From: Craspedostauros australis
Taxonomy: Eukaryota
Reading direction: 5' to 3'
Assembly (NCBI GenBank): GCA_030167865.1
Contig: JALAGF010000903.1
Span: forward strand, 1-46,934
Length of the DNA: 46,934 nucleotides
The translations under genes and the position numbers were made by a program. The stretch's first letter is position 1. The number at the start of each line of letters is the position of its first letter. The notes beneath the pieces were generated by a model, which made no database searches, was not told where the DNA came from, and saw nothing but the letters and a program-made list of their open reading frames with translations. This document shows, piece after piece, positions 6,167 to 46,194 of the stretch.

Positions 6167-9100
6167 ATGGTGAAGATGCAAGTGAAGACCATGACCGCAC
6201 TTGCGGTCTACCTTGGATTGTCATGGTTGGCATCGGAAGGCGGAAGCGGCGCGGTAGCCTTCGCACCAAGGCTCCAAATGCAGTCCGCAAGCGTCGCTAA
6301 GCTCCAGGCTACGAACGGGATCCGTGCCGTGCGCGCAAGGCAGCAACGACTGCCCGCCGCAACATCGTCATTGTTATTCATGTCTGCCTACGAGAACGAT
6401 GCGGATGATGATGCCGACATCGACGATTGGAACGCATTGGTTGTGGCATTTAAGATTTACAAGGCATCATACGGCAACCTCAAAGTGCCCCTGCGATTCG
6501 TCATACCCAAAAGTCCTCCATGGCCAGGTAAGACCAGACCGTTGTCAAGCAGTGCGATGGATTCATTGCACAGACATGTTGTTTCTGTGAACGGTGACTT
6601 TGCTGGGAAGTTCCGTCTCTTCTTTCGCTGGCTCGTTTCGCTGGCTCGAGGTGCTCGGATTGAAGCATGAATCAAACCAACGATACCACTCCGATGAAAC
6701 CTTTGCTCTTCACGATCCATGACCTATGATTTGTTCCTCGTGCACTCCCTCTCACGCTTCATTTCCCTTCATCGATTTGACCCGCGTCAATACGGCGGGC
6801 CCATACCTGCTTATGCCTCGCTGGGATCATACCTCAACATTGATTTCTGAACCATGTTACGGATTGTGCATTCAACTTGTGGTATCGCTGCGACGCATTC
6901 TCGTGCGACGAATGCATCGCGGCTGAAATTGGTAGAAAGCGCCTGGGAGATGAAGCTCGGGCTAAGGGTGAGCCAGATCCGATCCACTGGCAAGTACGTC
7001 AACAATAACTCTGAGCGCCGCAAGACCCTTGACGACCTCGGCTTTGTGTGGAGAGCCCGTGTAGCGTCACCAACGAACGACCCAACCATTGACAAAGGCG
7101 TCACATCCGATCAGCTCTTCGATGCTGTCAAGATGTACCGGATGCAAACCAAGCCAGAGGGTTCTTTCATGGTCCCAGCTGATTTCACCGTCCCCAACGA
7201 GGAACCATGGCCCGTCAACACAAGAGGCCTCCCCCTGGGTAGCATACTATTGACAATGAAAACGGCCGCATTCCGGAAACAGCACCCCGAGGCTACAGAA
7301 CAGTTTGCGGTGCTAGGATTGCAAGCCAACAAGAAGGAGGTTACCAACGATGCCCGATTCCAAAAGGTCTTCTCCGCACTAAAGACCTACAGAGAGATCT
7401 ACGGCGACCTCCTCATCCCACAGCCGTTCGTGGTCCCCTCTGATTCTCCTCAATGGGCCGAGGAGACGTGGGGACTTCGCCTGGGCGCCAGAGTCAACGC
7501 AATTCGGAGTCAGGGGACCTTCGTCAAGAACAACCCCGAGCGCCGTCAGATGCTGGACGATCTTGGCTTCATATGGAGTCCACCGCAAGCTCGGAGAGGC
7601 CGCAAAGCAGCCGGCACTGATGCCGACGTCGATGTCGACGTCGACGAAGATCCAGCAGCTGTAGTCGCCGACACAATTCCAGCTGCACCGATGGAGGAAG
7701 CGGCGCAGGTCGACACGGAGGAAAGGTCGCCCGAGGCCGGCGCCAGCACGATGGATGCCATCAACGCTCTTGACGACATCTTCGGCGCGGACTTTGGTCT
7801 GGATTCGGATCTAGACCCGCAGTCTGCCCAACCTACCGCGCCGACGTGGGGGATTGACGGCAGCGTGAATATGGATGAATTTGGGATGAGCGAGGAGGCG
7901 GAATCACCAGCCGAAGAGTACAAACCACGACCAATGCTCAACGAAACCTTGGCTGCTGCCATGAAGCGCGCAGAGGAATGCGGCATTATTGAGAAGGTGC
8001 AGGACGGGTAAGTTCTCTTTGATTGCGATGCATAGTTGCGGGGTGAATGCTGTCGAAGGACAGAGGTCTCTGTCAAACCTCAGCGAAAGCAAAATTGCCA
8101 GTTTGTCCCTCACGCCCTCGAGCGGGCGGACGAACAAACGATGTGTGCGGACTATACACGCATACCCGCACACATACACGTACGCACATACAAGTGTACC
8201 CATTCATGATCGTTTGTTCTCACATCCCACCACCAATTTGATGCCTGTGATCACGCGCACAATGAATACCGTCTCTTTCTATGCCACGCTCCGATGTCAT
8301 ACTGTTATACATCTTTCTCCTTCTGCATCAACAGCGAACATGCACGTATCGTGAAGGGAAAGCGACATAAGGAAATTCCATGGTTCAACGACGACTTTGG
8401 CGGTGAGTGGGTGTTTGAAGACGTTGTCGAAGCCCTCACGTTGTACAAATCATTCTACGGAGACTTCGCCAACCTCACCACAGCAGACTATGCCATCCCT
8501 CTTCAGGATTATGATGCCGAGATGGACGAATTCGGCATCCCAGATTTCGATATGGAGATCGAAATGGATGCATCCAAACGTGCCGCCGCTGCCATATCCC
8601 GGCTGGAGGAGGCCGAATCGGCCATGACGGAGGATATCATCGAGGCCGATATCCTTCAGCTGCAATCAGAACTTTCCGATACAGACGATGGCACAAAGGC
8701 AGTCGACGCGAACTGGCCAGATTACCTCGGTGGCATGCCGCTGGGAAATATCGTTTGGCGAATCCGAGATGGAAGCCTGGAGGTGAAGCACCTGGAGGAA
8801 CGCAAAGCACAGCTCGATGCCATTGGCTTTGATTGGGGCGATCCCAAGTACTTCATCGACATCCCATTCGAAAAGGCCATGTGCGCAATGTACGCATACT
8901 ACTTGGTCCGCGGAGACATGTTCGTCGCGGCGGACTTTGTCATGCCCGATGAAGATCCTTGGCCAACTGCGTTGGCTGGGTACGAACTGGGCAAAGCTGT
9001 AGAACGCGTGCGCCAACTTCAGAACTTCTTGGAGGCGTACCATGTCGACAAGGTCGGTCTGCTGCGAATGATCGACTTCGTTTGGTTCCCGAATCTCGCC

Positions 9101-9817
9101 ATGCCGATCGATCCAAACGAACCCGAGATGACATCAGAGACCCTCCTTTTGTGCGCCATGGGACACCCGGACTACTCCAAGATGAGCGACGTCCCGATGG
9201 GCCTGACAGACAAGATCATCGCGGACGGGCCGTTCTTCGAGACAGATGATCCGAAGCTCTGGTGGCGCAAGTGGCACAATTGGGACTATGTCAAGGATTA
9301 CTGGTACGAGCTGGGGCGTCGAGACAATGCGTTCGTGCTGAGACGCAACGGGTACCCGCAAATGGCCGCGGAGCATGAGGAAAAGTATGGCCCAGGTCTC
9401 TTCCAGCAGATAGATGAGACCTTGAAGGAGCTGGAAGATTCACAAGTTGCTCTCAATTCGGACACGGGCAAGGACGAGATGTTGCAGAAACTGAAGTACT
9501 TCCGCACAGAGATGACCGGTTGTACCGATCTGCATCCGAAGACCATCGAGAAGATGCTGGAGGATATTGACACGCGCATTCTGGAGTTGGTGACTGGGAA
9601 CAAAGGCGGTTCCGTCCAAGAAAACCTCGAGGCCGCCATGGTGGCAGAGTACGAAGAAGAGAGCGTCGCAGATGATACCGATGCTCTGTTGGCAACAGAC
9701 GCGAACGGAGCAAACGGCGAAGGCCAAGAAGTTGAGTACGAATACTACGGTGAGGAGTACGAGGGCACGGAGGAGGAAGATGAATCCGATGTTGATTCCA
9801 GTCTCGGTCTGCAGTAG
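6167..9817 (+). CDS. Predicted plastid-targeted protein with five helicase-associated (HA-like) repeats; 3 exons (6167-6527, 6936-8007, 8335-9817), ~971 aa
   Basis: ORFs 6125, 6854 and 8294 join in frame via introns 6528-6935 (GTAAGA...TAG) and 8008-8334 (GTAAGT...CAG), giving PPWP-E-SAWEMKLG and VQD-G-EHAR. Hydrophobic N-terminus followed by AVA-FAP. Repeats of the form 'AL..Y...YG.L.VP..F.VP...WP....G..LG..V..IR........ERR..LD.LGF.W'. The start could be 6167, 6176 or 6191. Confidence 0.8.
6528..6935 (+). other. Spliceosomal intron (408 nt) of HA-repeat gene
   Basis: CAG|GTAAGA donor and TAG| acceptor; phase-1 join restores a complete HA repeat. Confidence 0.85.
8008..8334 (+). other. Spliceosomal intron (327 nt) of HA-repeat gene
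   Basis: GG|GTAAGT donor, pyrimidine tract and CAACAG| acceptor; phase-2 join is in frame. Confidence 0.85.
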
Positions 9818-10136
9818 AAGCACACAAACAACCACGCACACCCAACGATGCACAACAGAAATGACACCAGGACGGCGGCGACATCGGATACGATCGCTCC
9901 GAAGATCGTTCAACGCCAAGCGCTAGCTAGCAGTGTAGAGTTATCATAGTATTATTTGGTACTGCCTCTTATTCTCTACACCTACATGATTGGATAAGCA
10001 CATTTCTCACAAGTGGGTGGTAGTGTGCTTGTCTTGTGTTTGTTGACGATTGGTGGTCGATTGTTTGTATCAGTGTCACCGTCGCTGCTGTTATTCTGCT
10101 GCCCTGTTGCGTTTCAAACCGTCGCTGTTCGTGTTC

Positions 10137-12206
10137 CTATTCCACCGTCTTGCTGGAGCGCGCTGGCGCTGCCGCTTGTTTTTCGCTGGCGTCGGCTGAC
10201 AAAATCGACATCATCACAAGGCCCAAGACCACGAGACCGATGAGGATGAGGAAAATGTAGAATAGCGCACCACGCCCTGGGTCGTCCTCGCCTTGCTTTG
10301 TGCCTGTGTACAGCGGTGGCGTCGTTGCTGTTGACGTTGGTGCGGGTGTTGCCGGTTGATCGGGTGGGTTCGTTGTTGTCATGTCAAATCGGGTGACTTG
10401 CACCGTCGGGTTGCTGGTGGGAGCATTGGATGGGACACTGCTTCTTCTGAGCGAGGCACCGCTTGTTGACGGCGGTGACGTCGACGGCGCACTTGATATC
10501 GGGGGCACGACTTCGTGGAGTGTTGCAGATCCTTTCCAAACACAAGATTGGTAGTCACCTGAATGGAAGACTTGTGTCTGAACGCACTGTGCCGGAGACG
10601 CGATGGAGACGATACCATGCTCCCGGCATTGGCGTCGATCGAACGCTTCCTTCACGATTGCGGTGCTACCGTGTTGATTATCGGAAGAGGTTGGCACACT
10701 GCAATATCCCGAGTGATCCAAATAGAGCGAGACGCGGGCGCGCTTATGCTGGTCGTTGCTTGGGGGTTCGGACCCGATCGCAATGACGGAGCCTGACGGA
10801 TTCAATGACAAGGACAGCTGTGTCGACCGGTGGTTCGTCGTTCGTGAGCGAACATACGATGATACTACCGGTGCTGCCGATGCAGAGGATGTGATCATCA
10901 TCTGTGGCCCATGCATCCATTGCTGCTGATCGAAACGGTCATACACAAAAACTTGCCGTGGATGTGATGTTGTCTTTTGCGATGGCGGTGAAGTAGCAAG
11001 GGCGACGATTCGATTGCCTTCATCTGTCATCACCACTTGTTGAACGATGCTGCGAGCAGGGCCGAAGCCCTCGTCGGATGTCACCACGGTTTCAAATATC
11101 AGGCTCCAGCCACTTGGTGCGTCAAAATGGGCTTTCATCCAGTGGAATACCCGAAGGTCTGACGGCGAGGCGGCTTGGAGGGAGGAGGCCCCGCGTGCAG
11201 TGTTGGAACTGGTATTGGTGTTGGCCTCGGTGTTGTTGTAGTCGTTGCGCCGCATGCCTTGATCGCTGCGTTGGATTGACGACGCCACGATGTAGGGGTC
11301 GGCTGTGTTGCTCATGTCCATGAACTGGCCAAGCTGCTCTCCTGGCGCGTGGCCGACGATGGCACTGCCGAATTGAAACCATTCACCGTTGACGAAATCA
11401 AATACTTGGATCATGCCACGTTGGCCATCGAATCCGGGTGCCGACACAGCAATCCGAAATGCGCGTTGGGTTTGATGCAGCGACGATGGAGCTTCAGCGA
11501 AAACTACTTGCGATCCAAATCGCGCACCGGAGTGCTGTCCCTGGAGACGGGAACCTCGAAGCTTCCAGCCACGTTCTTGCGGGTGGTACGTGTGAGACTG
11601 GACGAAGCCGCGATATCCATCGGATGAATCGCATGCTGTGATGAGATGGTACGCATTTCGTTGCTGCTCCAGGTCGAATGCCTGCGCGATGGATATGGAC
11701 GTGTCAGAGAGCGGCCCGTCGCAGATGCGGACACTGTTTCCAACTTGCACGTTGTTGGGAAGCGTGGAGAGGACATCGACGTAGCTTTGGCCGTCGCTGC
11801 CTCTTCGTCCGACTGCGAGGAACAACCCGTTATCCGCCATGTCGAAATAGTTGCCCATGTGCTCCTCCGACGATCCACGGAGAGTGGCTATCAATTTCCA
11901 GTCGCATGATGTGACGAAGTCGCTGTCGCTGTTGGTGCCATTGCCAGCGCCGTTGTCAGCGCTGCCAACCGTGCAGCTGGCGCGATGGTACAAGAAAATG
12001 GCACCATCGCCATTCGAAAAGTCGGGATCTCCCACGGCAACTCGGTCGGATTTCTCGGAGATCTTGACAACGGTACCGAAGGCGGAGGATGCCTGCGGCT
12101 CGGAGATGGAGCTCAAAAGATTGAATCGTTCTTGAGAGGCGCCAGCAATGCCCATCAGGCAGGCAAGGAGCATGGATGAGATGGTGAAGTCGATGCCTCG
12201 CATCAT
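10137..12206 (-). CDS. Type I membrane/cell-surface protein with FG-GAP-like beta-propeller repeats and Ser/Thr/Pro-rich stalk
   Basis: ATG at 12206 (689 aa). Signal peptide 'MLLACLMGIAGA'; repeats 'FGTVVKIS...VAVGDP....GAIFLY' and 'FGSQVVF...IAVSAPGFDGQRGMIQVF'; STP-rich linker; C-terminal TM 'ALFYIFLILIGLVVLGLVMMSIL'; short cytoplasmic tail. Confidence 0.7.
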   Translation of the reverse strand: MMRGIDFTISSMLLACLMGIAGASQERFNLLSSISEPQASSAFGTVVKISEKSDRVAVGDPDFSNGDGAIFLYHRASCTVGSADNGAGNGTNSDSDFVTSCDWKLIATLRGSSEEHMGNYFDMADNGLFLAVGRRGSDGQSYVDVLSTLPNNVQVGNSVRICDGPLSDTSISIAQAFDLEQQRNAYHLITACDSSDGYRGFVQSHTYHPQERGWKLRGSRLQGQHSGARFGSQVVFAEAPSSLHQTQRAFRIAVSAPGFDGQRGMIQVFDFVNGEWFQFGSAIVGHAPGEQLGQFMDMSNTADPYIVASSIQRSDQGMRRNDYNNTEANTNTSSNTARGASSLQAASPSDLRVFHWMKAHFDAPSGWSLIFETVVTSDEGFGPARSIVQQVVMTDEGNRIVALATSPPSQKTTSHPRQVFVYDRFDQQQWMHGPQMMITSSASAAPVVSSYVRSRTTNHRSTQLSLSLNPSGSVIAIGSEPPSNDQHKRARVSLYLDHSGYCSVPTSSDNQHGSTAIVKEAFDRRQCREHGIVSIASPAQCVQTQVFHSGDYQSCVWKGSATLHEVVPPISSAPSTSPPSTSGASLRRSSVPSNAPTSNPTVQVTRFDMTTTNPPDQPATPAPTSTATTPPLYTGTKQGEDDPGRGALFYIFLILIGLVVLGLVMMSILSADASEKQAAAPARSSKTVE

Positions 12207-13102
12207 GCTTGGATGCACGCGTATCGTATGCGTTACTTGTTCGTTGATTGTGAAGCGACTGCAACTTTATGAGGTTTGCCACTTCAAGATCTGATGTCTG
12301 CGTGGCGTCGCGTGCTTGAGTATGGACGGACGGTCGATAAACTCGGTCGCTCCATAATTTGCAACAGCGCAGTCTCGCAGCATACTGTATTGTCGCGCTG
12401 GTACGTGTATGGTACCTCTTGGCAGATTGTTTCGTCTTGGCCTTGATGAGGCAGGAACGGCTAGTTTCTCAGTTGTCTCACCAATCCGAAACGTCCCGCC
12501 CGTTTTTCGACATTTTGTTTTCTGTCGCATCGCATCGCATGAAGTTGCTCCTTCCCGCAGACAAGTTGCGAGACACCCTGTCGATGAACATCATCTCCTT
12601 TATTGTGGAGGAAGTGTTATGTGTGCTCGTAGGTGAAGAGAGCGGATCGTGCCATGGATTGCGCTTCTGTTGTTGCCTTTTGTTCCTGGCTCTCTTCTCG
12701 GTGGCCTTTGTTGTGAGCAAAACGGTGTCCAGATCGTACGCAAAAGTCTGAGCCACGATAGTGGGGTGTTTTTGCCCAACGCTGGATGGGGCCTCCATCA
12801 GTACGTCGTCGTACACGAATGTGCAGGATCGTTCGCCAGACGCAGAGAAGGAAACTTGGTTGTTCTGTGGCCACACCGAACCAAACCCACCATTTTCCGT
12901 GTTGGGTTTGTCGCTGCGATGTGCCTCTCAGCGGTTCCCAAGCACTCCATTGCGACAATAACTGCGTCTGCATCTGCCACTCCTACAACTACAATTCCTG
13001 TTACTGTGATTCACATCGGTACTGTAACTACCACTGCCGCCGAAACTGCTAGTGGTGCTCACTTATAACTCGACCAGGCCAAGACCATGAGGAGTGAGAG
13101 CA

Positions 13103-14329: not shown

Positions 14330-15266
14330 ACGACCGGTGCCGATCGACGAAGTAACTTCAGGATCAGCAACAGGACATGGCCGAAGCATTGGCACTGCGT
14401 GCGTTCAGCAGCGTCTCCCTCTCGAATGAACGAAAGAACGAACGAAACAGACGAGCACCACGAAGAAAATTGAGCAGAAGATACAATTGCGCCCCAGTCA
14501 AGTCACGTTCAATATGGTCGAGTACGTATTCCAGTCTCCGCCCGCAGCCACATTGTGATGCTCGGTTGCGCTGTGGCGATTAACTTTGCAATCGGTGCTC
14601 GACGAGCATGATGTTCCCAGGCCCACTGCCTACAAAATATATAATATTGCACGACGATGGATAGGGATCAAGAGTAAAAAGTAGAGCAGAGTGAGTAGTC
14701 ATAGTAGTACGGGTATAACATGAGGAACTGCGAGGATTGCATCCCGACGAGCATTCCAATTGACATTTTACTGCATCATCTGTCCGTCTGCCGATTTACA
14801 CGAACGTCCGTGTTTGTGGAAAAGGTTGCTGGTTGTGGCGAGCAGAGTAATCGAGTTGGTCAGTGCCAGAAATCTTGTACGTACAAACACACAGCCACGA
14901 CAACGGCGATACGAAAAAGAAACAGGGCCGACAATGACGGAAAAAGTCGCATGACCCATGCGGAGCAGAGACACACACTGCCAAACCGCACAAGTCTTGG
15001 CAGGCGCTGCCATCGCCCACAGATTGCAACCGTCACTGTGGACAGCACAATACTGCTGTGGTCTGCTATTCTATTATTCAACTCAACTCAACTCCCTACC
15101 AACAGAGAGTCTAAGTCAGATTAGATCGTGCAACAGCTCATCTTGCATATTACTACAAGTAGAATACATTGGCAATTGCAGCTTGGGTCATCCCTTCCCC
15201 TTCCCACGGTGGCTGCCTTTCACAACGCAACAGCTCGCCCGCAACGTGGCGAGTAGCGAGAGAGGC

Positions 15267-17774
15267 ATGCGCGAAATGGGAAGTCCCAGATCGCCTCGCC
15301 AGATGGGTGCCTCGCGCAGTGCCTCGTCACCGCAGAGCATGCCCCGTCCGCCCCCGCTTCCGCAGTCACCACCGAAGGAAACACGGCTGGTGGCACTGCC
15401 GCCCCCGCGTTCGCCTGGCGCCGTGCGCATAACGAATGCGTCGCCACAAGCGTTCAAGACGAAGTTGAAACCGTCGCCGCGAGCATCGCCGCTACGAACG
15501 AGCCATCCTGAATCTGCGATCGGAAGCGTGGTCGCCGACATCGCCGCAAGTCACAGCACCAGCAACGGCATCAGCAACGGCAAAGCCATGAATCTTACCA
15601 GCACAGCAGACGCACCGACGCCGACGCTTAGTTTGCTGCCGCGCATCACCGTACCGACGGTCGATGAAATGAAAAGCGAGGGGAAGACGAACGGCGGAAA
15701 GGAAGACGAAGAAAAAGATCAGGGCACAGGCGAGGAGGAGGGCGGGGATGCGGCACAGAGACAGTCGCCGCTCAAGGCAGCGTCGGAACTCATTCGGTCG
15801 CTGGATACAGCGTACACTCAGGTCAGCTCGGTCGCCATCAACACAGCGAGGAATGCCGAAGACGCGAGGCGCAACGCCAAGGCAGCGTCAGAAATTGCCC
15901 GTCGGTACTCATCAGGCCGCAGCATCTCGTCGACGACATCCCGCAAGCACTTGCCATCGCCCATGAACGGCGGGGCGTCCATCGCGAGCGCCACCATTTC
16001 CATTGGCGGGGTGTCGCTCACGAGTCCGTTGCGGTCGCCGGCCAACAGCGAGCAGCTCTTGTCCACGAAGAGCCGTGGAAGCTACGCTCCCTGGGATGAC
16101 ATCAACACGGTCGATGATGCTGGAGGCCCGCCAGCCTTCGCCACGACACCCGAGGACTCGAAAACAGCAACCACACCAGCCAACGGTAACGATCCGAAGC
16201 ACGGCGGCCCGCACTTTTCAGAATCCACCCCGCTCTCCATGTCCAGCGCCATGTCCAACGGAGGTGGGAGCAGATGGCGGCGTCAGCACAAGCCACCCAG
16301 TTCTGTCGGCCGTCTGGCACAGAGCCACGCGGACGAAGTCCTGGCGCTGTCCATAGAACTCGAACGGTCCAAGCAGGCCTTGCAGACGGAGCAGCAACTT
16401 CATGACGACTCCAAGGCAGCCCTGGCAGCATCGCGCACCAAGAACAAGCATCTCGAGGGTCAGATTCGGAAGATGCTGGAGGAGCAGGAATCTCGCCGAG
16501 ACGAGGTGGGGCACAAGTCAGAGCAGCTGGAACAGGAGCTCTCACGAGCGCAGTATCGCGTCCAAGCAGCCGAGGAGGACGCGCAGTTGGCGTTGGACCT
16601 GGCCAAGCAGAATGCGCAGACACGGGAGCAGACGGAAGGTCGTCTGGAGGATGCGATGAAGGAAATCCATCGTCTGCGCCAGCTCAACGAGGCGCACATG
16701 CAGAATCACCCCATGAGTGCTGCATCCCAACTTGTCGCTAGCGACCCCAACAGTGGCAAGCATGTGCGCTTCGCGGACGAGGCCAGACCCGCAAAGTCCA
16801 ACCTCAAGCAGCCGCAACAATCGTCTTTGAAACAGGCGGTGCAGGGGGAGATGGAGAAGGCGCAGCAAACCAAATCAACCATAGACATGCAATCGACACA
16901 GCAGGACGAAGCCGCGGGATTCGATTCGCCAGCGCGAAGCAGAGCCCCGCGATCCATGATCTCCGCAGGACGGCACTTGTTGCGCCGTGCCAGGGCGGAT
17001 GCCACCAAAACGGACATATGCACAACAGTGGAGTTCACACCCACCAAGTCGGCAGAACGAAGGCGCAGACTCAAGCAGCGGTTGGAGCATCTGACTTCCA
17101 ACGAATCTCCGCTCATGCGAATTGCGAACAACATCCCCCCGAGCCCAGGCATGGGGCAGTCCACTGCCTTGGTGTCATCCAGTCCAGCACGCGGTGGCGT
17201 GTTCTCAGACGAGGTCCGCAATGCCGCCAAGCTGCTGCAGGACAGCGGCAAGCGATTGCAGCTGGCGGGGCACTGGTGGAGAAGCAAGAGCGCAATCCAG
17301 GACATTCGGCTCGAGGCCATGACACGGCAGTACTGCCAATCCGTTGAGGTAAGCACCGTGGCGGCGTCGGCCTGCAAAAGTGCGCCTTCCCATGTACAAT
17401 GCCACATTCTTTGCCACCCCATCGTGGGAACAATCACCCAACTCAATCCTCGTTTCTCACACTCACCCGTTTTTTTGTCGGTGTCATTGCCGTTTTCACT
17501 TCTCTCCTCGTCCTTCTCCTTATTCCATGCCCACAACGCAACCTATGATGATGGCATACATGCGTACTACACACACACAAACAACAATATGCACTTCACC
17601 TGTGTGGGATTGTCACAGTTCAAGATGGATCAGCACAAGAAGCAGATTGATGAGCTTGACGCACTGTGCGGATACCTCGAGCGCAGCATGGATGTCACAA
17701 TCGCCACCAAGAAGGATGGCGATGCGCAACCCACGGAATCAGAAGAGAAGGAGATTGCAGAATCGTTGGTCTAA
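15267..17774 (+). CDS. Hypothetical coiled-coil protein (Ser/Pro-rich N-terminus); 2 exons (15267-17348, 17619-17774), ~745 aa
   Basis: Long ORF with heptad-rich E/Q/L segment (~16330-16700). Probable intron 17349-17618 (GAG|GTAAGC...TCACAG|) whose translation is not protein-like. Start chosen at MREMGSPRSP and is uncertain. Confidence 0.7.
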   Translation: MREMGSPRSPRQMGASRSASSPQSMPRPPPLPQSPPKETRLVALPPPRSPGAVRITNASPQAFKTKLKPSPRASPLRTSHPESAIGSVVADIAASHSTSNGISNGKAMNLTSTADAPTPTLSLLPRITVPTVDEMKSEGKTNGGKEDEEKDQGTGEEEGGDAAQRQSPLKAASELIRSLDTAYTQVSSVAINTARNAEDARRNAKAASEIARRYSSGRSISSTTSRKHLPSPMNGGASIASATISIGGVSLTSPLRSPANSEQLLSTKSRGSYAPWDDINTVDDAGGPPAFATTPEDSKTATTPANGNDPKHGGPHFSESTPLSMSSAMSNGGGSRWRRQHKPPSSVGRLAQSHADEVLALSIELERSKQALQTEQQLHDDSKAALAASRTKNKHLEGQIRKMLEEQESRRDEVGHKSEQLEQELSRAQYRVQAAEEDAQLALDLAKQNAQTREQTEGRLEDAMKEIHRLRQLNEAHMQNHPMSAASQLVASDPNSGKHVRFADEARPAKSNLKQPQQSSLKQAVQGEMEKAQQTKSTIDMQSTQQDEAAGFDSPARSRAPRSMISAGRHLLRRARADATKTDICTTVEFTPTKSAERRRRLKQRLEHLTSNESPLMRIANNIPPSPGMGQSTALVSSSPARGGVFSDEVRNAAKLLQDSGKRLQLAGHWWRSKSAIQDIRLEAMTRQYCQSVEVSTVAASACKSAPSHVQCHILCHPIVGTITQLNPRFSHSPVFLSVSLPFSLLSSSFSLFHAHNATYDDGIHAYYTHTNNNMHFTCVGLSQFKMDQHKKQIDELDALCGYLERSMDVTIATKKDGDAQPTESEEKEIAESLV
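17349..17618 (+). other. Probable stop-free, frame-preserving (270 nt) intron
   Basis: Canonical GTAAGC donor, pyrimidine-rich interior, CACAG acceptor; join reads YCQSVE|FKMDQHKKQIDEL. Confidence 0.7.
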
Positions 17775-17965
17775 CGATCTTCGCATGCTTATTCGTACTC
17801 CTCTGTAGAGATACAATTATGTACCATTATTACCCACTGATTGGAATTCCGCCTCTCAACCATACGAGTGCTCATATTGGCGCAAAACAATCACTCACGC
17901 CGCAACAAAAGAGGAAAGCGATATGTGATCCTTGACTCCTCTCTATTCGTATTCGTGGCAGATTA

Positions 17966-18110
17966 CACTGTACTCGCGGACTTCGGGTACTCTATTTCGG
18001 ATCAACCGGGAATCTAAAAGTATCCGGAGTCCTATCAGGTGTGGTTGGGCACCGCCGTTCTCGTACATGCCATCGGGGGCCACAGCATTCCTGGCGTGGT
18101 ATTTTCAGTG
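17966..18110 (+). ncRNA. Candidate structured RNA element (three-way junction), family not recognised
   Basis: 14-bp stem GGACUUCGGGUACU (17978-17991)/AGUAUCCGGAGUCC (18019-18032) with G-U pairs; second arm 18036-18093; closing stem 17966-17977/18094-18110. Confidence 0.4.
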
Positions 18111-18245
18111 CTCTCCATCACATGATATTGTGCGAACGCTGTTACAATAATAGTATCTTCAAAGTCACAAGCTCATCCCTTCCAGGGCTTGCCACTGTAC
18201 AGCTACTATATCGAGAGGGAGAACGTACAAGTACGAGTACTTCTC

Positions 18246-19712
18246 TCAAATGTTAACGGCTGCGGTTTTGCTCTCCCGTTCCCGCAACCCATGCAACAAT
18301 ATCCCGGCAGCGATGGGCACGCTCAGCGAATCAACGCCATCCTCCATGGCAATCCTCACCTTGTAGCTGCATGCCTCCCTCGTCGCTGCGCTAATCCCGA
18401 TGCCCTCATTGCCGAAGCAACAGCACCAGTTGGACGGAATCTCGCCTTTCCTCACATTGCTCAAGAGAAGAACACTGCCGTTTCTGTCACCATTCTGAGC
18501 AGCTGATTCATCTGCAACAGCCGCAAACGAAGCGATCTGCAAGGGCCCCTCTTTCCATCGCCGAAGTGTGCTGGCCAGGTCTTCCACACGCACGATAGGC
18601 ACCCGGAAGATGTGTCCCATGGAGACACGCACCGAACGTCGGTACCATGCGTCGCAGCAATCTTTGGACAACACTACAGCACAGATCCCGAATGCGGAGG
18701 CACACCGTATCATGGAACCCAGATTGGACGTATCGCAGATTCCATCCAACGCCAAAATACGGATGGGCTGACACGGTGATGATGTTGGTTGTTGCTGTCT
18801 CATTCGCGTCAGCAGAACGTCCAGCCATGCCTCATCCCTGCATGTCGGCACAATGCCGCACGCCAGAATGCCCCTCGTCACTGGATAACCAGCCACCATG
18901 CTGATCACTTTCTCTTCTGCCAACATCACGTGGAACGGCGGTGCATTGGCCTCGTTCGTCTTCGCCTTCACTTGCTCGATGTCATGGAGCAAATGCACTG
19001 GCGGTTGCAGCACAAAACTGGGCTTGCAAAAGATGCTCATCGCGCAGATAGCCATGCTCCTCCCAGGCTGTCCATGTGGCCCATGCTGCCCATGTGGCCC
19101 ATGCTGCCCATCATCACCCAAGCTCCCTCCACACTGTTGAATCAGCAGCCGGACAGTCTCTGTGCCTTCCGCAAAGAAGATCTGGTCTCCCGATGACTTA
19201 TTGGCGGCGGCTGCTGCTGCCGCTCCAGGATCGCTTCTACTGCGATCATGCTTCGTGTCTACAATGTCGAAATACGGGCCTAGCAGCTTCCCCAAGCTGG
19301 AGTCCGGATATTCCCTGGCGGCCCGCACCGCGTCTTCATCCACTTGCGTCACAAAGTGGCAGTTTCTCCTAATCCAATCTTGAACGCCTTGCTTGGCAGC
19401 AACCTCTGCCTTCTTGCGGCCCTGTTTTACCAGCCACTTGCGTCGCTTTTCTTCCTTGATGGCCTTTCCATCCACGCTCTTTCGCTTGTTGTCGCGTCTT
19501 TCGGCGCTGCGCTCAGCTTTGCTGTCAACCTTGTTGCTGCAACCGTTGCCGTTCCCGGTGCCGGCGGTACCACTATTGGCGTCATCGTGCTGAGGACACG
19601 TGAGAAGTTGCGATGATATTGACGATGACGACGTTCCCGATGCCATCGTTCCCAGTCCTTCTGGTCCATGTTCTGTTGCTTGATTCTTTCGATTTGTGCC
19701 TGCCTCATCCAT
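18246..19712 (-). CDS. SpoU/TrmH-family RNA 2'-O-methyltransferase
   Basis: SPOUT motifs 'ILALDGICDTSNLGSMIRCASAFG', 'RSVRVSMG', 'FGNEGIGIS', 'VRIAMEDGVDSLSVPIAAGILL'; N-terminal 'FFAEG'. First ATG 19712 (488 aa). Confidence 0.9.
   Translation of the reverse strand: MDEAGTNRKNQATEHGPEGLGTMASGTSSSSISSQLLTCPQHDDANSGTAGTGNGNGCSNKVDSKAERSAERRDNKRKSVDGKAIKEEKRRKWLVKQGRKKAEVAAKQGVQDWIRRNCHFVTQVDEDAVRAAREYPDSSLGKLLGPYFDIVDTKHDRSRSDPGAAAAAAANKSSGDQIFFAEGTETVRLLIQQCGGSLGDDGQHGPHGQHGPHGQPGRSMAICAMSIFCKPSFVLQPPVHLLHDIEQVKAKTNEANAPPFHVMLAEEKVISMVAGYPVTRGILACGIVPTCRDEAWLDVLLTRMRQQQPTSSPCQPIRILALDGICDTSNLGSMIRCASAFGICAVVLSKDCCDAWYRRSVRVSMGHIFRVPIVRVEDLASTLRRWKEGPLQIASFAAVADESAAQNGDRNGSVLLLSNVRKGEIPSNWCCCFGNEGIGISAATREACSYKVRIAMEDGVDSLSVPIAAGILLHGLRERESKTAAVNI
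19072..19107 (-). repeat. 18-bp tandem duplication encoding (GQHGPH)n insertion in the SpoU protein
   Basis: ccatgtggcccatgctgc x2 on + strand; protein GQHGPHGQHGPHGQ. Confidence 0.85.
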
Positions 19713-20130
19713 CGTTGCAATGGTTCCGTTGCTGCTTTGCCATGTCGGGACAACTGCCTTTCGTTGCTCGAACGTGCGGCGATGCCCAAAGCCTCCGTAC
19801 TCGAAACCTGTAGTTGTACGCAGCGCGAGACGATCACACACTTCGAGTCCACCGTGGCCAACGAGTGCGAGCAGATGATGGCCTTGAAGATCTTCCAGAG
19901 CGCACCGAATTTTTCACGCAATCTGGTACACTCTAGACCAAATACGAAGCTAGAGAACAAGAGGTAATGTTGGTGCAATCTTCTGCATTTCACCAAAGCA
20001 GTACGTACACTTTAGGAGACAGTACGGCACGACTGCACAGCACCATGCATGCGCCACACTCTACTTCAAAGAAGCACCAATCAAACTTCAAGACTATACG
20101 GGATTGCTGCCCGAATATGTACTCCACATT

Positions 20131-23100
20131 CTACAGAACTAAAGGCGGTTCAAGGCGGTTGGCTGCGGCGGTTATGGATTGCGAGTCGCCTCCGCCTTGG
20201 AACTCCAATTCGATCAGGGCGTCTCCCTTTGCCAAACGTCCGGTTGGGCCGCCCGACAGCAAGAATGCCTGGAATATCTTGGCTTGAACCGATCTGTGAA
20301 ACGAGTACGTATGATGATATTGGGCGAATATCACAGTGTGGATAGTACAACACAGCCACCCGGCCAGGATGGGTACCATAAAAAGTGATGTCATAGGTGA
20401 GCAAGCAGTTGAAACGCAAGCAAAAGTGTGGGTATGGCGGGTGAACAAAAATGTGTCAATAAGACGATGACATGTGTACGGATGGTGGAGCAGTGGTGCA
20501 GTAGTAGCGGAATGGTATCCACACAGTCTCCTTCGATTCGCCGGTCAAGTCGTCTCTGAGAGTCACACAGCACCCCACCGAGAGCAAGAACAGCACGTGT
20601 ACTTACAAAATGGGGCCGTCATCGCCCCCCTTGCTTTGTTTTGCGTCTGCCACGATCCGAAACACGCTGGTGGATTCCACAACGACCTGGACTGTCGGCT
20701 CGCGTTTTCCCTGAATATTCCTCGTGCTCGTAATTAGCATGTCGAGCTTCTCGGTAGGAGTTTTGGAGGGCCGCCCTCGTTTACCCTCGTTCTTTGGACC
20801 GCGGATGCTCTTTGCGACCTTGCCAGATGCCTCCTTGATGGACTTCATTCCTGCATTCGTCGCGCCCTTCATGGCCTTCATCCCACTGGCGGTGGCCCCT
20901 TTCATCGCTTTGATGCCACCGCCTGCGGCATCCTTGAGCATCTTGACACCGGCCTCGCCTGCGCTCTTCAGCTGTGAGCGTCTGGATTTGCCGGAGTTGG
21001 ATTCCGACGGCTGAGAGTTCGGCCCTGCTACCACTTCTGGGATGGGGACGTTCATGCCTGTGGAGTCGATGGTTCGCAGCAGAACTTCTCGCCACTTGAT
21101 GAAGTCGCCTCGGCTGTTGAAACGAAGCTGGCGTTCGTGGTCGCGCTTCTTGGTTTGGATTTGCAAGATCTTGTCGTCGAGACTCTTCATGGTGGCCCCG
21201 CCCAAGACCATCTGCCCCCGCAGTCCGTGCGGTCTGGGAGTCGCTTTCTCGTACAGCGACAGGACTCCCTCCGAAATGACGAAGAAACGTTCTCTCCACT
21301 TCTTGGTCTTCCTGGTCTTCGTTGTTAGCCATCCTGTCACGTCATTGGTCCGTGGCTCGTACTCTGAGAAATCGTCGCCGGCAAAGGAAACATCGATCCG
21401 TACGATGGGGTCATCGGACATTTCCTTCACGCACACAACGCCCTGATTTGCGCACATGTTGCGAAGACAGGCCAGAGCATCCTTCCGATTTTTGTACCGA
21501 AGGATCGACGTGAGCAATGTGCGAGAGTACGACATGGCTTGAACCTCCGTCATGACATCCTTCATGTCAAACCGACTTATGGACGCGGCACGCTTGAAGG
21601 ACGGCAAGTCTTCTTCAAGCGGATCGCATCGATCGTACTCCAAAATGCAACGTGTCAGCGCCCCGATGACGCGTTCCGCTGAATACGAGCTCCTTGCCTC
21701 AACCAAGTGCCCATTGATCGCGACTGAGGCGTTGCTCAAATTCTTCCAAAACTCAGATATCGAGGTCTGCACACGTTGCTTGGATTTGGGAGGCATCGGT
21801 GCGCTGTCGTCGTTCTGATAATCACCGTTTTGCAACGATATCATCTCTCTGACCCATTGCAAAGGTACACGGAGCGATGCTGCGGCACGTTGCTGGTACA
21901 CGACCGACTGCGCCGCGACGCGATACTCCACTGCAGAATCCACGCCCTGGAAGGACGAGCGGTAAGAATGGTATGCATCGAGCGCGCTCTCGTGCGTGTT
22001 CAGGTCCAGGGGTTCTTGCATTTCATCCTCCAGATCACCGACCATTGCTTGGTTTATTGCCCGGATCCATCCCTGCCGCTCTTCTTCGGACTTCGCCAGC
22101 CAGCGGGTCTTTTGACCTTCGGAGATGATGTCGAAGCAGAACCCGCCGCTGCTCCCGTAAGCGCTGTCACCCGAGATCTTGCACTTGCAGGTGTACCTGC
22201 GAAGGTGGATCATCTTCCTGCCTTTCTCTTCTCCGCGGTCCGTATCTTCGTAGTACACGAGGTTGCCCTTGCGAATTTCCACGTACTTGACGAAGTAGAG
22301 CTTCGCGAATTTCTTCTTCAACGGTCCCTTCTTGACGATGTTTGTTTCGTCGTTGATGTCTGCCTCGACGCCGATATGATCGCGTTCTGCCAACAGCTGC
22401 AGCACACCCTTGACCATCATGTGGTGTTCCCATGCGAATACGGAGAAATCCTGGGCCTTAATGTTCTTTACCAAGTCCTGATCGAGGTAGTCATAAAGAT
22501 CGGGCGTGATGTTGAGGAAAGAATTTGGAAGTCGGGACACGCTGGTTGTAATGTCCTGCTTGCTCGCGAAGGCTTCGACCACGGCATCCTCATCGCCCCA
22601 AACGTCCATGGAATTCGAGGCCAGACCGTGCGACGATGACCCTCCTCCCGCAGCGTTGTTAAGAGGTGCATCCGAGTGGTCTGATTCCGAATCTGACGAT
22701 GACTCCCCGAAGTCGGAACCTTCGTCATTTTTCATGTCGAGCTCGGAGCTGTTCAGATCTGGAACTTGGATGCTCATGGCGGCGCCACGTTTCCGACTAG
22801 AGCGTTTGTGAGAGCTGCCACCGCCCAGCGCAAGTGCTTTCATCCGTTGCAGCGGTGTTCCGAGGGGAGATTTCCCCATCTCGGCGGATCCCATCTTGCG
22901 CCGTCGACCTTTCGCGCTGCTTGATTTGACCCCATCCCCGCGAGGAGACTTCGGTTGTTGCGAGCTGACGACCTTGTTCTTTCGTCGGTGGGGAGAAACC
23001 CCTGGCAACATCATGCTGAGGACTCCACGATGTTGCGAGGAACTTGGTGATGCCGGTTGCATTTCGGCCGATTCGGTCTGATGATCCAACCCACCAGGCA

Positions 23101-23656
23101 CCTTCAGACTTGCTTTGGATGATGACCTTGCTTTGCTGCTTGTGGGCGTCGTGGTCCCATCGCCCTGTGCCAGCCCATCCGTGTTCTTTTGCGTGAGCTT
23201 GGAGGCATCGATTGCTCCTGGTCGCTTGAACTCTTCCGACATGATGTCATCGATGTCATCATCTTCTATAATTTCCACATCGTCTTCGATGCCATCATCA
23301 TCATAATCGTCATCGATCTGCACCTCAATCCCCTCAGCCTCGTTGTCAGCTCTCTCTTCGTCGTCATGATCGTCGTCGTCTTCTTCATCATCGGTGAGAA
23401 TCTCGCAGTCCGCCGCGGAATCCGGGTCGTCCACATCAAATGCATCACTCTCCGATGTCACCACCCCGGGTCCAACACGGGATGTCACCCCCTCTCGGAA
23501 GATGGCTTGTTCGTTGCTTTTCTGCATTGAGAGCGTGCACTCCGTACCGTCGGTTCCCTTGGTGAACACCAGTTTGGTTCTATCGTTGCTGCTGGAGGTT
23601 GTGCTGCTGCTGGCCATTCGGTCGTCCACAGCCACGTCCTTGGATGCTTCTGACAT
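20131..23656 (-). CDS. Double pleckstrin-homology (PH) domain protein; 2 exons (23656-20607, 20293-20131), ~1070 aa
   Basis: PH1 'IVKKGPLKKK...YVEIRKGNLVYYE...SEEERQGWIRAINQA' and PH2 'VTGWLTTK...KKWRERFFVISEGVLSLYE...FIKWREVL'. ORF 20603 ends at a TT|GTAAGT donor; the acceptor TTTCACAG| joins in frame (GPI-L-SVQAKIFQAFLLSGG). Confidence 0.82.
20294..20606 (-). other. Spliceosomal intron (313 nt) of PH-domain gene
   Basis: GTAAGT donor, TTTCACAG acceptor, phase-2 in-frame join. Confidence 0.8.
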
Positions 23657-23999
23657 GACGGCTGTTCCTCCCAGCTTGGTTCGCGCACTTGTGCAAGAAT
23701 GCGAAATAGATTGTGGTCTTCCAAAATCCAGGATTGACGAAAGAAAGGAGAAGCCAAGGTCTTCGTCTCTCCAAGCACTGCGGCACCTTCTCCTGTTGCG
23801 GGGGCTTGCAGCAAGCGAACTTGGCGATTGAAAAACCAAAAAAAAAACTCGACTATCGGATGACGCCTGATGCAACCACCACCTCCTTTGTAGTGAACCC
23901 TGCCGTCGTTATGATCTCTGGTTCACCCTTGAGCTGCCTGGGTGGAGGCTGCTGCCTGGGTGGGTGAGGTTCCTTTTCCGTGATCTTTTGTCGGGGCCT

Positions 24000-24002
<3 letters not shown>

Positions 24003-24033
<31 letters not shown>
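24003..24033. repeat. (TC)n / (GA)n dinucleotide microsatellite
   Basis: About 15 perfect TC units, ~350 nt upstream of the PH gene ATG. Confidence 0.95.
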
Positions 24034-24038
<5 letters not shown>

Positions 24039-24753
24039 TGATGGTGGGTACGAACCGCGTCATGGGCATCACCACGGCTGGTCACGCGTGTATCGACACT
24101 CGTGCGGAGATCGTATAAAAACGGTGTCTCATCCTCCCACACCAAACTCCACAAACACAGATCCGGAGAAGGCCATCGTTCCGCACACAAACACCGTTGT
24201 TGGCGTGCCAGTTTTTGGGTTCACAGCAGAAGTCATTCGGGTGCCAAGTCGTGGATAGTTTGGCCTCTTCGATTCCATCGATCGCTCTTGTGACATCAAC
24301 TTCAGTCGATGGAGTCGGTGGCGTTTTGATTTGCTTCCCGCCATTTTTTGAATGGTCAAGACATGATCTGCGCAAAAAAACTACACGTAAAGTTGTTCGT
24401 ACCGAAGCCTTTCCCATGGTGGTGCCGACAGTGCGACTTTTTTGAAATGCCTGGCAGGGGGTTGTGTTTGAACCATAGTCGATGCGAATCAAAGTGACAC
24501 AAAGAACAATTGTGACGGAGCTGGCGACGCATGCTCACATTATGAACGACAAAGGCCTCTGTGGCATTTCAATTCTTTTCGAATGTATTCGCAGCCATCA
24601 TCATGCCGTTGCTGTGGCAACATTCTGTGATGGTGTTCTGTGGCGACATCTGCACAGATCAACAGATAATTTCATCAACTTCTTTGGATGATTCACACGC
24701 CGTCACCTGACTATCTCATTCGGCGGCAGCAACACAACGTGACACAACGCATC

Positions 24754-24826
24754 GTAACGTAACGCAACGCAACGCAACGCAACGCAACGCTCCGCAATGC
24801 AACGCAACGCTCCGCAATGCAACGCT
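24754..24826. repeat. (GCAAC)n pentanucleotide satellite with higher-order 20-bp unit
   Basis: gtaac gtaac (gcaac)5 gctcc gcaat gcaac gcaac gctcc gcaat gcaac. Confidence 0.9.
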
Positions 24827-24924: not shown

Positions 24925-27246
24925 ATGGAATCTGCAACGAAACGACGCAGCAGTCGCAGCCGCAGCGCACGGAGGGCATGCCATGAGGATCGACCAACGG
25001 AAGTCAGAACCGATGAACGCCGCATGAGCAAAAGAAGAAGCAAAAGCAGACAGAAGCGGAGCCGCAGAACAAGCGAACGCAGGCAACCCAAAGGCAGCAG
25101 CAACAGCGACACTATCAGCGTGAGCAACAGCATCGTCGATAACGGGGTCGATGACGAAGTCGACCACAAAAGAAGAAGTCGAAGCAGAAGTCGGAGCACA
25201 CGTAGGAGAACGCGCACGAAAAACCATCGTGCCAAGCCTGGTCAAAATGGAACGGGCGTAGACATCTGGTTCGGAGGCCTCTCATATCTGGATTCCATGT
25301 TCCGAGATAATTACGCATCGAGCGATGAAGCCGATGAAGCCGATGAAGCCGATGAACACGACGAAATTGATGAATATGATGAACAGGACGAGCATGGTGA
25401 ACAAGATCACCACATTGAACAGGATAATTACGGCAGCGAGAATCGAAGGATAGGCCACGATCGTACCAACGATGAAGCTATTGGCAGCGGCGGATACTGT
25501 CTATCGCCAGTGGATGATTCGCATCTCCACGATGCCATCCTTGCTGGATTTTGCCGACCGATGAACATTCACAACAAATCACCCTCCGCCAGCAGCGAAT
25601 CCAATAGCTTTGCAGATGCCATTGACGACCGTGACGGCGACGACGACGACATTGCTGCTGATACCAATCGCGAAAAAGAAGACAAAGAAAATGCTTTACC
25701 TCACCTCAGTTTCGAATCGTATTCGACAACACAAACGGCCAAGGTTACCAATTGCAGCTCAGCCAAGCGTACGCTGCGATCGTCGTTGGCGAGAATGCCT
25801 TTAGACGAGGACGGCGCTTTCGACGGCGGTAATGATGCCGGCAGCAATGATCAACATGGCATGCGTTCCGCGTACCACGCTGTCGCCGTACTAGGACAAA
25901 AGCCATCAACAATCAATCAAAACATCTTCAACGTTCCAGAATCCCACAGCCAGAACACCACGCGCAGATACGCTGAGTCATCGCTGTCTCTGCCTCATTC
26001 ATCGTCGACACGTCCGCGACTGGCTCATCAGAACAAGGCTATTGCACCAAAGGGGGGCTGTGGACATTCATCTCTGGCACACCAGCCCCCCTTCGTTGCA
26101 AGCGATGGTCGAGATGCGAACGATCCACGTCAGGAACTTGTGGAAGGAAGAGAAATCGCCGCAATACAATCGACAAGTGGCATACACCATCACCCACAAG
26201 AGAAGCATCAGCATCAGCATCAGCATCGTCAAGGACGAAACTCCAGCGTTGAGCGCACTGGTCTCGTCCAAGCAGACATGAAAAATGGAAATCGCCCTCA
26301 GGCGTTGTCGCTGCAGGCCGACATCGATGATGCTCTCCTGGATGACTTCATTGAAGAGTTCTTGACCGACGAAGTTGTGGCCTCATCTCAGCTATATCGC
26401 CAACAATCCTCTCCACCAGTGCAACAGCTTGTCTGGAGGATTACTCCACCCTGCACCCTCAGCGAAAGCGATGCGGACCAGATGGCTCACGAAATGTGTT
26501 CCGCTCGAGATGCTCAGAGCGCTGCTGTCGCAACATCCACGGCTGAAATGAACCGCAATTCCAACGAAAGCAAGCCTCCAGTGCAACCACCGGGGCACAA
26601 AGCTGGGCATGGTGGGACCACTTCGATGGGTCAAGACATCCTAGCGTCATTCCTCACATGTGCTGCCCCGAAATCCTCAATCGCGCAACTTGCGATATGG
26701 CCAAAAGCAACAGGGTACTCGCCGCCTGCGCCTTCTCTGGTGCCTCCGCTGTCCCGAAACGCGGCAGGCAGACTACTGAAAGCAAAGCACGGATTAGAAA
26801 CGCCAATCGTTCCTGTCTATGAAGAAGTTGCGCGTCCCGAGGATCTGAGTGGAACCAAGAAAGACAAGCAGGTCGAGCTGTTGATCAACAAATTGAAGAT
26901 CACATTTCAGCACGTCGAGCATGACGACGCCTCCAGCATCGCTCTCTCCGATACAGACAAATCGTTGACTTTGAACTCTTCGTTGATCTCGACCCAAGAT
27001 GCGTGGATGAACCAGGAAGTCACATGGGAGGATCACTCCAGGATGAAGACAGAGCGGCTGCGGAACAAAATCCGCAGATACAAATCTATCGTCATATCTG
27101 GCATCGCCACTCGTCCTTCCAGCCACTTGGTAGATCTTGCCGTCAAACGGCCGTTCAAGGAACACGGAATGATGCGCCCATTACGAGATGCGACACAGGG
27201 AAATAGCGTACGAGGCTTCCGCTTTGGAGCTAATAGCACAAAGTAG
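24925..27246 (+). CDS. Hypothetical low-complexity protein (Arg/Ser-rich basic N-terminus, acidic DE repeats)
   Basis: 773-aa ATG ORF with no recognisable domain; the last ~130 aa look more ordered. Confidence 0.6.
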   Translation: MESATKRRSSRSRSARRACHEDRPTEVRTDERRMSKRRSKSRQKRSRRTSERRQPKGSSNSDTISVSNSIVDNGVDDEVDHKRRSRSRSRSTRRRTRTKNHRAKPGQNGTGVDIWFGGLSYLDSMFRDNYASSDEADEADEADEHDEIDEYDEQDEHGEQDHHIEQDNYGSENRRIGHDRTNDEAIGSGGYCLSPVDDSHLHDAILAGFCRPMNIHNKSPSASSESNSFADAIDDRDGDDDDIAADTNREKEDKENALPHLSFESYSTTQTAKVTNCSSAKRTLRSSLARMPLDEDGAFDGGNDAGSNDQHGMRSAYHAVAVLGQKPSTINQNIFNVPESHSQNTTRRYAESSLSLPHSSSTRPRLAHQNKAIAPKGGCGHSSLAHQPPFVASDGRDANDPRQELVEGREIAAIQSTSGIHHHPQEKHQHQHQHRQGRNSSVERTGLVQADMKNGNRPQALSLQADIDDALLDDFIEEFLTDEVVASSQLYRQQSSPPVQQLVWRITPPCTLSESDADQMAHEMCSARDAQSAAVATSTAEMNRNSNESKPPVQPPGHKAGHGGTTSMGQDILASFLTCAAPKSSIAQLAIWPKATGYSPPAPSLVPPLSRNAAGRLLKAKHGLETPIVPVYEEVARPEDLSGTKKDKQVELLINKLKITFQHVEHDDASSIALSDTDKSLTLNSSLISTQDAWMNQEVTWEDHSRMKTERLRNKIRRYKSIVISGIATRPSSHLVDLAVKRPFKEHGMMRPLRDATQGNSVRGFRFGANSTK

Positions 27247-37158: not shown

Positions 37159-38178
37159 GATGGCTTTTGTTGTTGTTGTTGCGGTTGCGGTTGTTGGAAT
37201 GAGAAAGTCTGCGGAATCGGTCAAAGTCAATCGGCGTGTCCTGGTATGGTCGTGGATGATGATCGAGGGCTGTGAACTTGAACGTGAGCTTGGAGCTGTC
37301 GCTTCGTCGAGGAATTGTTGGGTTTGTGAGAATGGAAATGAGGCTTGGGGATGTGGCTTCGTTCGATTCGGTACGTTTGGAATCGTGAAACGGCGGACGT
37401 GGCGGCCGCAACGTCCATTCCTCCCCCTTGATGTCAGCGAGATTGTGCGGATGGTGGCACTCACGTTCACGTCACCAACCACCATCATCATCTTTGTTGT
37501 TGTCTTTGTTCCTCCTTTGTTGGTGGTGGTGGTGGGTGTGGAAGATTCTCCGTCATTCCTCTCTCTGACCGTTTGCGTCATTCTCCATCGTTCAACCTGC
37601 GACGGATCCACAGACAGACGACGGCGGAGAACAAAATGACCGGAGCTCGTGGCTCCTGTGAGTCACGATACGATAAACTCGGGAATCGGCAAATTCAACA
37701 TCGATTCATGGCTCGCACGTGACTCATTCTCGAAACGTCCGTGAATCATAATCGTGTGTTTGTTGCCGTTTTTCGGCGATTTGCACGCCTTTTCGTGGTG
37801 TGTTGCGGTTGTGGCGCGAAGAAAATGAGCGTTGGGTTTCTGTGCCTGTGCTTTGCGCTCGTACTTTGCACGGAAAGAGTTGATTGGAACAACGACGACT
37901 GCGACGACACGCGAGAAACAGAGAAGAATAGTGGTGGGGTGGTAAGATGGATTGGCTGATGTTGCAATCTTGGCGCGCAACTGCGGACGGGTAACACCGC
38001 ACTGCTACACGTCTTGCCACGCAGTGAGCTGCACCAAGATACTCTACTTTTCTCTCGTCTAACAGGAGAATGGAATAGAATGGAATGGGACGGAAATCAC
38101 GAACGTTGCCTCAACTGACGACAAATCCAACTGACGGCGATCAGTGGATCGAATGGCAGAAGGGGGCGAAGGGGTTCC

Positions 38179-45830: not shown

Positions 45831-46194
45831 CTCAATCCCCACGAAGGCTTCCTTTGTCGTCGGTATGGCTGGTGAAGCTTCTTGAAGTGATGATCGTACC
45901 CGCACCTACACCTGTACCCGCACCTGAAATGCACGGAATGGGAATAGACTGGACGGATTGGATCAGTCGGAGACCTGAATGGGTAACCTGTCTGCCTGCA
46001 AACCTGCCTGCCAACCTGGGCTACTGCTGACGACGATGGCAAGGAGAGGGCGGAAGCAAGGGCAATAGCCAAGATCCTCTGAGTGCTGCTGTCCCTGTGC
46101 CGTTCCTCGTAGTTATGATTGCGCTCCTGCGTGTGCTTTGTATCAGAGAGCTTGTTGCTGTTGTTGTGGTTGCGGATGCTATTTCAGCGCTTCT

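Follow-up and report, generated by a model that had tools for sequence, protein, structure and literature searches.

TPP aptamers have been predicted in the 3'UTRs of diatoms (PMC9544697), and canonical miRNAs are described as not detectable in this group (PMC4247016, PMC4156623). Replication template switching is reported to create hairpins de novo (PMC8794818, PMC10710096). Here we compare with these systems a 145-nt element (17966-18110) in a 46.9-kb window, that is, the whole stretch of DNA that was analyzed. The original prediction described the element as an RNA three-way junction, with a closing stem and two arms (arm 1 and arm 2), and proposed that it is a novel ncRNA or a 3'UTR cis-regulatory element.

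The locus resembles algal structured 3'UTR elements, such as TPP aptamers and SECIS, in its probable 3'UTR position, but its hairpin matches neither of the corresponding Rfam models. As in miRNA-like or Dicer-substrate hairpins, a Pol II transcript would contain a stable hairpin and the G-U wobbles would be on the transcribed strand; however, arm 1 has only 20 bp, divided into two helices with a 3/7-nt loop between them. MITEs and foldback elements are similar in their inverted-repeat architecture and in termini of the CACTG/CAGTG kind, whereas the element lacks a target-site duplication and is present as a single copy in the 46.9-kb window. Like template-switch hairpins and generic 3'UTR stem-loops, arm 1 is a short near-perfect inverted repeat with a small spacer, apparently transcribed, non-coding and without a family; its origin by template switching is only presumed.

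Flanking genes and contigs

A spacer of 471 nt, which contains the element, separates the stops of the convergent ORFs 14958-17774 (+) and 18246-19841 (-) (Table 1). The element is 191 nt from the end of the + strand ORF (17774) and 135 nt from the end of the SpoU ORF (18246), close to the ~190 and ~135 nt given originally, and the sequence and coordinates first reported for 17966-18110 agree with the window. The + strand gene, introduced in the original prediction as a "coiled-coil" gene, has no Pfam family in its ORF (14958-17774). Six relatives were found, the best of which is 61% identical and on record as a protein alone; one of the six is labeled "chromosome segregation ATPase" by its source. 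The opposing gene encodes a SpoU-type RNA 2'-O-methyltransferase. Among the 120 relatives listed of 217 in a collection of 5.8 billion proteins, the best are from pennate diatoms (Cylindrotheca, Nitzschia, Seminavis and Bacillariaceae MAGs), all that carry organism names are diatoms, none is more than 58% identical, and full-length relatives reach at most 53%. To judge from these sequences, the organism looks like a pennate diatom that has no close relative among the sequences of these collections, and its lineage seems to be poorly sampled. By gene content the window is eukaryotic, encoding a MIF4G/MA3 protein, a cytochrome P450, Gpi1 and a split threonine synthase, together with HA, DUF6824 and PAS histidine kinase domains. 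A bacterial promoter and terminator scan of the locus was set aside as meaningless for a eukaryote.

Table 1. Positions, in window coordinates, of the element, its parts and the neighboring genes.
Feature	Position	Strand	Basis or remark
+ strand gene ("coiled-coil" gene of the original prediction)	14958..17774	+	ORF
Intron of the + strand gene	17347..17616	+	270 nt, GT..AG, joint 17346->17617 in contig
Putative 3'UTR of the + strand gene, to contig end	17775..18147	+	531-nt contig
Closing stem, 5' strand (CACUG + UACUCGC)	17966..17977	+	Partner 18094-18110 in isolated fold
Arm 1, stem-loop	17978..18032	+	55 nt; sole part above chance
Proposed arm 2 (CAGG/CCUG + inner helices)	18036..18093	+	RNAfold MFE
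Closing stem, 3' strand (GCGUGGUA-uuuu-CAGUG)	18094..18110	+	T4 run 18102-18105
SpoU-type RNA 2'-O-methyltransferase gene	18246..19841	-	PF00588, E 1.7e-25

Transcript evidence comes from the contigs of one sequencing run (X1) that is only guessed to be RNA, and these contigs carry neither strand nor expression level. The run contains 82% of the sampled words from 17300-18800. Over 14500-20500, one of its contigs joins 17346 to 17617, skipping 270 nt with GT..AG borders; thus, spliced RNA of the + strand gene is present in the run. This intron (17347-17616) has a length that is a multiple of three and is open in frame, so the ORF list runs straight across it. Another contig of 531 nt matches 17617-18147 with no differences and no gaps. 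It starts exactly at 17617, the 3' splice site and first base of the last exon, and crosses both the stop at 17774 and the whole element, while a separate contig (18230-19099) covers the SpoU gene. Because the 531-nt contig continues directly from the last exon, and the spliced form occurs in the same run, the hairpin is probably located within the 3'UTR of the + strand gene; arm 1 ends ~115 nt before the contig end at 18147.

An intron-bearing contig (17460-17646, with 10 loose letters that match 17449-17458) indicates that pre-mRNA or DNA is also in the run, and the occurrence of both spliced and intron-bearing contigs at 17347-17616 could reflect intron retention or DNA. Given this contig and the guessed RNA status of X1, contig cover of the structure falls short of proof of transcription. 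The parts not covered by X1 (14701-16911, 17347-17448 and 18148-18229, among others) were left out as evidence. Run X2 gave no contig, and the one contig of the third run (X3) had matches of 18-21 nt only and was treated as spurious. Of the two natures first proposed for the element, the spliced joint and the 531-nt contig support a 3'UTR location, whereas independence as an ncRNA and a regulatory role are unsupported.

Folding of the element and of its parts

Folded as an isolated + strand RNA, 17966-18110 has an RNAfold minimum free energy (MFE) of -57.0 kcal/mol (z -3.55; 0/200 dinucleotide shuffles as good), and the fold of the - strand is weaker (-41.6 kcal/mol, z -2.02, 6/200 shuffles as good). 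The MFE structure of these 145 nt is the Y shape that had been drawn by eye, with the closing stem, arm 1 and arm 2. A folding z-score had been suggested as a check on that drawing, and it is significant for the whole 145 nt, but all of the excess stability resides in the 55 nt of arm 1. The lower part of this arm, an uninterrupted 14-bp helix (17978-17991/18019-18032) with two G-U pairs, and its upper part, a 6-bp helix UUUCGG/CCGGGA with two further G-U pairs above a 3/7-nt internal loop and closed by the loop AUCAA, both appear in the MFE as first described. Alone, arm 1 folds at -25.1 kcal/mol on the + strand (z -4.84), a value equaled by none of 200 shuffles; on the - strand it is 7.9 kcal weaker (-17.2 kcal/mol, z -2.18). 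The 14-bp helix has a pair probability of 0.99 in all seven sequence contexts (7/7) and of 0.98 in windowed local folding.

The remainder of the Y shape behaves differently. When the other 90 nt were shuffled around an unchanged arm 1, the real sequence had a z of only -1.09, and 77/500 shuffles folded as well or better. When arm 1 was given real flanks from elsewhere in the window, 36/500 combinations folded as well, and shuffling the strands of the closing stem only gave an equally good fold in 63/500 cases. Arm 2 alone (folded as 18033-18093) is equaled by 43/200 shuffles (z -0.73), and its pair probability ranges from 0.05 to 0.99 depending on context, with 0.38-0.46 in local folding. For the closing stem, the mean pair probability falls from ~0.95 in the isolated 145 nt to 0.67 with 50 nt added on each side and to 0.26 with 100 nt; it is 0.10 in 17775-18147, 0.00 in 17617-18147 and 0.63 in 17775-18245, and windowed local folding with limited span gives 0.33-0.57. 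Under such local folding, the Y shape still accounts for ~40-50% of the ensemble. Folded as a whole, the 373-nt stretch 17775-18147 has a z of -1.22 (10/100 shuffles as good). A 145-nt three-way junction as a unit is therefore not supported, as its closing stem and second arm do no better than chance and vary with the flanks chosen. Most likely, the Y shape is a chance completion around arm 1, the outcome varying with the cut points of the sequence; the closing stem and arm 2 are most likely one among several competing chance-level pairings, and a defined three-way junction is unsupported.

How unusual the element is within its own window was assessed with a scan of 145-nt segments on both strands (step 10, 9328 grid windows, z regressed on composition). 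Optimally phased, the element has a z of -2.71 against this background, and it is equaled or bettered by 43/9328 windows, which fall in 19 other distinct loci. A finer scan for 60-nt hairpins (step 3, both strands, 47 kb) ranks arm 1 as the second-best locus (z -4.88) and as the best hairpin outside any ORF. The window contains 11 uninterrupted helices of at least 14 bp with a loop of at most 40 nt, compared to 2.4 +- 1.3 in Markov shuffles, and among these 11 arm 1 has the fewest G-U pairs (2). Arm 1 is thus a real and unusually clean inverted repeat, and such repeats are commoner than chance in this genome. By coordinates, the majority of the 30 best 60-nt hairpins fall within long ORFs, and a link between strong hairpins and convergent intergenic regions was rejected on that ground.

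Known families were searched for across the locus. Rfam 15 (4227 models, among them those of snRNAs, snoRNAs, SRP, RNase P/MRP, Y and vault RNAs, TPP, SECIS and hammerhead) gave no match at the gathering score anywhere in the window. Over 17000-19000, with E up to 10, the sole match on the element is mir-1013, with 17.3 bits against a cut-off of 60 bits (E 6.6). ARAGORN found no tRNA or tmRNA gene in the whole window, and the five stop-to-stop ORFs across the element contain no Pfam family at E up to 0.1. The Rfam result agrees with the earlier statement that no snRNA, C/D, H/ACA, TPP, SECIS or hammerhead signature is visible.

Several classes were also considered on their structural features and rejected. 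An H/ACA snoRNA consists of a hairpin, an H box (ANANNA), a second hairpin and an ACA 3 nt from the 3' end; here only 3 nt (UAU, 18033-18035) lie between the arms, there is no ACA within 3 nt past arm 2, and no Rfam H/ACA model matches the element (E up to 10, 17000-19000). C/D box snoRNAs have a terminal stem and next to it two boxes, RUGAUGA close to the 5' end and CUGA close to the 3' end; neither TGATGA nor CTGA occurs in 17940-18130. For SECIS, no AUGA...GA quartet flanks the hairpin, and neither the SECIS nor the TPP model of Rfam gave a match in 17000-19000 with E up to 10; no hammerhead model matched the element in that search. A miRNA precursor was rejected since stems of 14 bp and 6 bp, split by a 3/7-nt internal loop, are short for a duplex of ~21 nt.

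Explanations for the hairpin

We consider it fairly probable that the feature is a stable 55-nt stem-loop in the 3'UTR of the + strand gene that arose by local inverted duplication and has either no dedicated function or only a generic one, with the Y shape around it due to chance. The non-random feature would then be a single imperfect inverted repeat at 17978-18032, which would be transcribed within the 3'UTR of the + strand mRNA and fold into a stable stem-loop. The repeat may have originated through local inverted duplication, for example by a template switch during replication. A generic effect of such a 3'UTR stem might be that of a local barrier to exonucleases or of a platform for double-strand RNA-binding proteins, and the hairpin would not be a separate RNA gene. 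A neutral origin accounts only loosely for the rank of arm 1 as the second-best hairpin in 47 kb and the best one outside ORFs.

It is possible but rather unlikely that the stem-loop, as the hairpin alone or as the Y shape, is instead a functional cis-regulatory element of the 3'UTR, bound by a dsRNA-binding protein or cleaved by an RNase III-type enzyme, and that it sets mRNA stability, localisation or 3'-end formation. Its place in the putative 3'UTR, ~115 nt before the contig end, its high and context-independent stability and its standing as the best non-ORF hairpin of the window are consistent with such a role; however, it contains no known motif (the Rfam models, including those of SECIS, TPP and hammerhead, are negative), and similar hairpins occur within ORFs of the same window.

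The wobble pairs bear on the same question. The MFE of the 145 nt contains seven G-U pairs among 50, confirming the count of seven on which the original argument for an RNA-level structure was built; four of these are in arm 1 and three in the chance-level helices. Arm 1 departs from perfect complementarity by four transitions (17983/18027, 17987/18023, 17996/18010 and 17997/18009), all of which are G-U on the + strand and none A-C, so that 4/4 wobble pairs favor the transcribed strand. Under strand-symmetric mutation this has a one-sided probability of 1/16, which rises to 1/8 when the choice of strand is made post hoc. The argument does not hold in its original form, because the significant hairpin contains only four G-U pairs and the strand was picked after looking. 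It is further weakened by the energy asymmetry between strands, which is common across the window: in the 145-nt scan, an asymmetry of at least 15.4 kcal favors the + strand in 5% of windows and occurs in either direction in 10%. We regard the G-U pattern of arm 1 as a weak hint of selection at the RNA level.

A scan of metagenomes for the SpoU domain yielded three loci, two of which (L001 and L002) are 47% identical to the gene in the window and one (L003) a partial match with 34% identity. In L001 and L002 the downstream neighbor is a Q-rich gene different from the + strand gene of the window, and synteny is absent; the best BLASTP match between the L001 neighbor and the + strand gene (E 0.008) extends over 38 low-complexity residues. 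A covariance model was built from the single sequence of the element and run with filters off against the window and these three loci. It gave 31 matches with E of 10 or less, of which one is the element itself (180 bits) and none falls in L001 or L002. The next match (L003, 1167-1229; 15.2 bits, with a roughly calibrated E of 0.025) is a GC-rich stretch of 63 nt spread across the 145-position model and was rejected as noise. That the SpoU relatives in L001 and L002 have a different neighboring gene, with no match to the model, may count against a regulatory role.

That the locus is what remains of a small mobile element of the foldback or MITE-like kind, either with CACTG...CAGTG as terminal inverted repeats or with arm 1 as the element, appears improbable. 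The 145-nt unit does open with CACTG and close with CAGTG, but this terminal repeat is only 5 bp long and is followed by a 4-nt bulge. A core inverted repeat (12/14 + 4/6 positions) and the frequency of helices of at least 14 bp, ~4.6 times that in Markov shuffles, would also fit a mobile origin. There is, however, no target-site duplication: the borders GATTA/CACTG...CAGTG/CTCTC contain no direct repeat of at least 2 nt, the flanks ...GATTA and CTCTC... having nothing in common, and the same is true of the flanks of arm 1. Dispersed copies, named originally as a sign of a MITE, were sought within the 46.9-kb window, which sets the scope of this result, and neither a seed search nor the covariance model found a second copy there. 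The element is likewise part of none of the 20 largest direct repeat families (32 in total) and of none of the 25 longest inverted pairs (71 in total).

We would give only a slim chance to the idea that the hairpin, possibly with its Y extension, is a lineage-specific regulatory RNA, either a 3'UTR switch for the coiled-coil gene or a source of small RNAs. As a switch it would be recognized by a protein or by RNase III; as a small-RNA source it would stand in a group reported to be without canonical miRNAs. Pol III transcripts usually end at a T run. Very improbable is an independent small RNA gene, either a miRNA-like precursor or a Pol III-type transcript with paired 5' and 3' ends that stops at the U run 18102-18105. 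In its favor, the T4 run directly follows the inner closing stem, and arm 1 resembles a miRNA precursor model at noise level. Against it, the contig extends past the T run as far as 18147 and joins without a break to the last exon of the + strand gene, neither an Rfam family nor a tRNA-like gene was found, and the closing stem does not exceed chance. For a 21-nt duplex, a stem of 14 + 6 bp interrupted by a 3/7 loop is short, and canonical miRNAs were reported as not found in diatoms (PMC4247016, PMC4156623).

The stem-loop of 3'UTR and local duplication origin, our preferred reading, is probably an ordinary and possibly functionless feature. As it stands, one stable stem-loop in a probable diatom 3'UTR, without a family and present as a single copy in the window, matters little. 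Post-transcriptional regulation in diatoms is poorly known, and if the hairpin were conserved or processed it would join the very small number of cis-acting or small RNA elements that have been defined in this group. The most useful outcome is a negative one, namely that both the junction and the G-U strand argument fail controls in which the strong hairpin is held fixed.

Other hairpins and features of the window

The top 60-nt hairpin of the window is on the - strand at 26041-26100 (-33.8 kcal/mol, background z -5.66), within the + strand ORF 24925-27246, which has no Pfam family. The best-folding 145-nt stretches are at 8021-8250 on both strands, with z to -4.47 (+) and -3.49 (-). They occupy the spacer between ORF 6854-8011, which encodes an HA domain, and ORF 8294-9817, an intergenic region of palindromic or structured appearance. 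At 9992-10034 (+), a 13-bp helix around a 17-nt loop is present in the convergent spacer between ORFs 8294-9817 (+) and 10137-12218 (-). It provides one more case of a hairpin in a convergent spacer, and a general pattern of this kind was not found in the window.

Among the genes, threonine synthase is divided over two - strand ORFs (34957-36168 and 36802-37611), with Thr_synth_N on one side of the division and PALP and THR4_C on the other, and an intron of ~630 nt probably lies between them. The - strand also encodes, at 41091-45905, a hybrid histidine kinase of 1604 aa in which five PAS stretches are combined with HisKA, HATPase_c and one receiver domain. A (CT)n microsatellite (23979-24039) and an array of GCAAC/GTAAC pentamers (24729-24823) are both located in the spacer upstream of ORF 20603-23875 (-) and ORF 24925-27246 (+).
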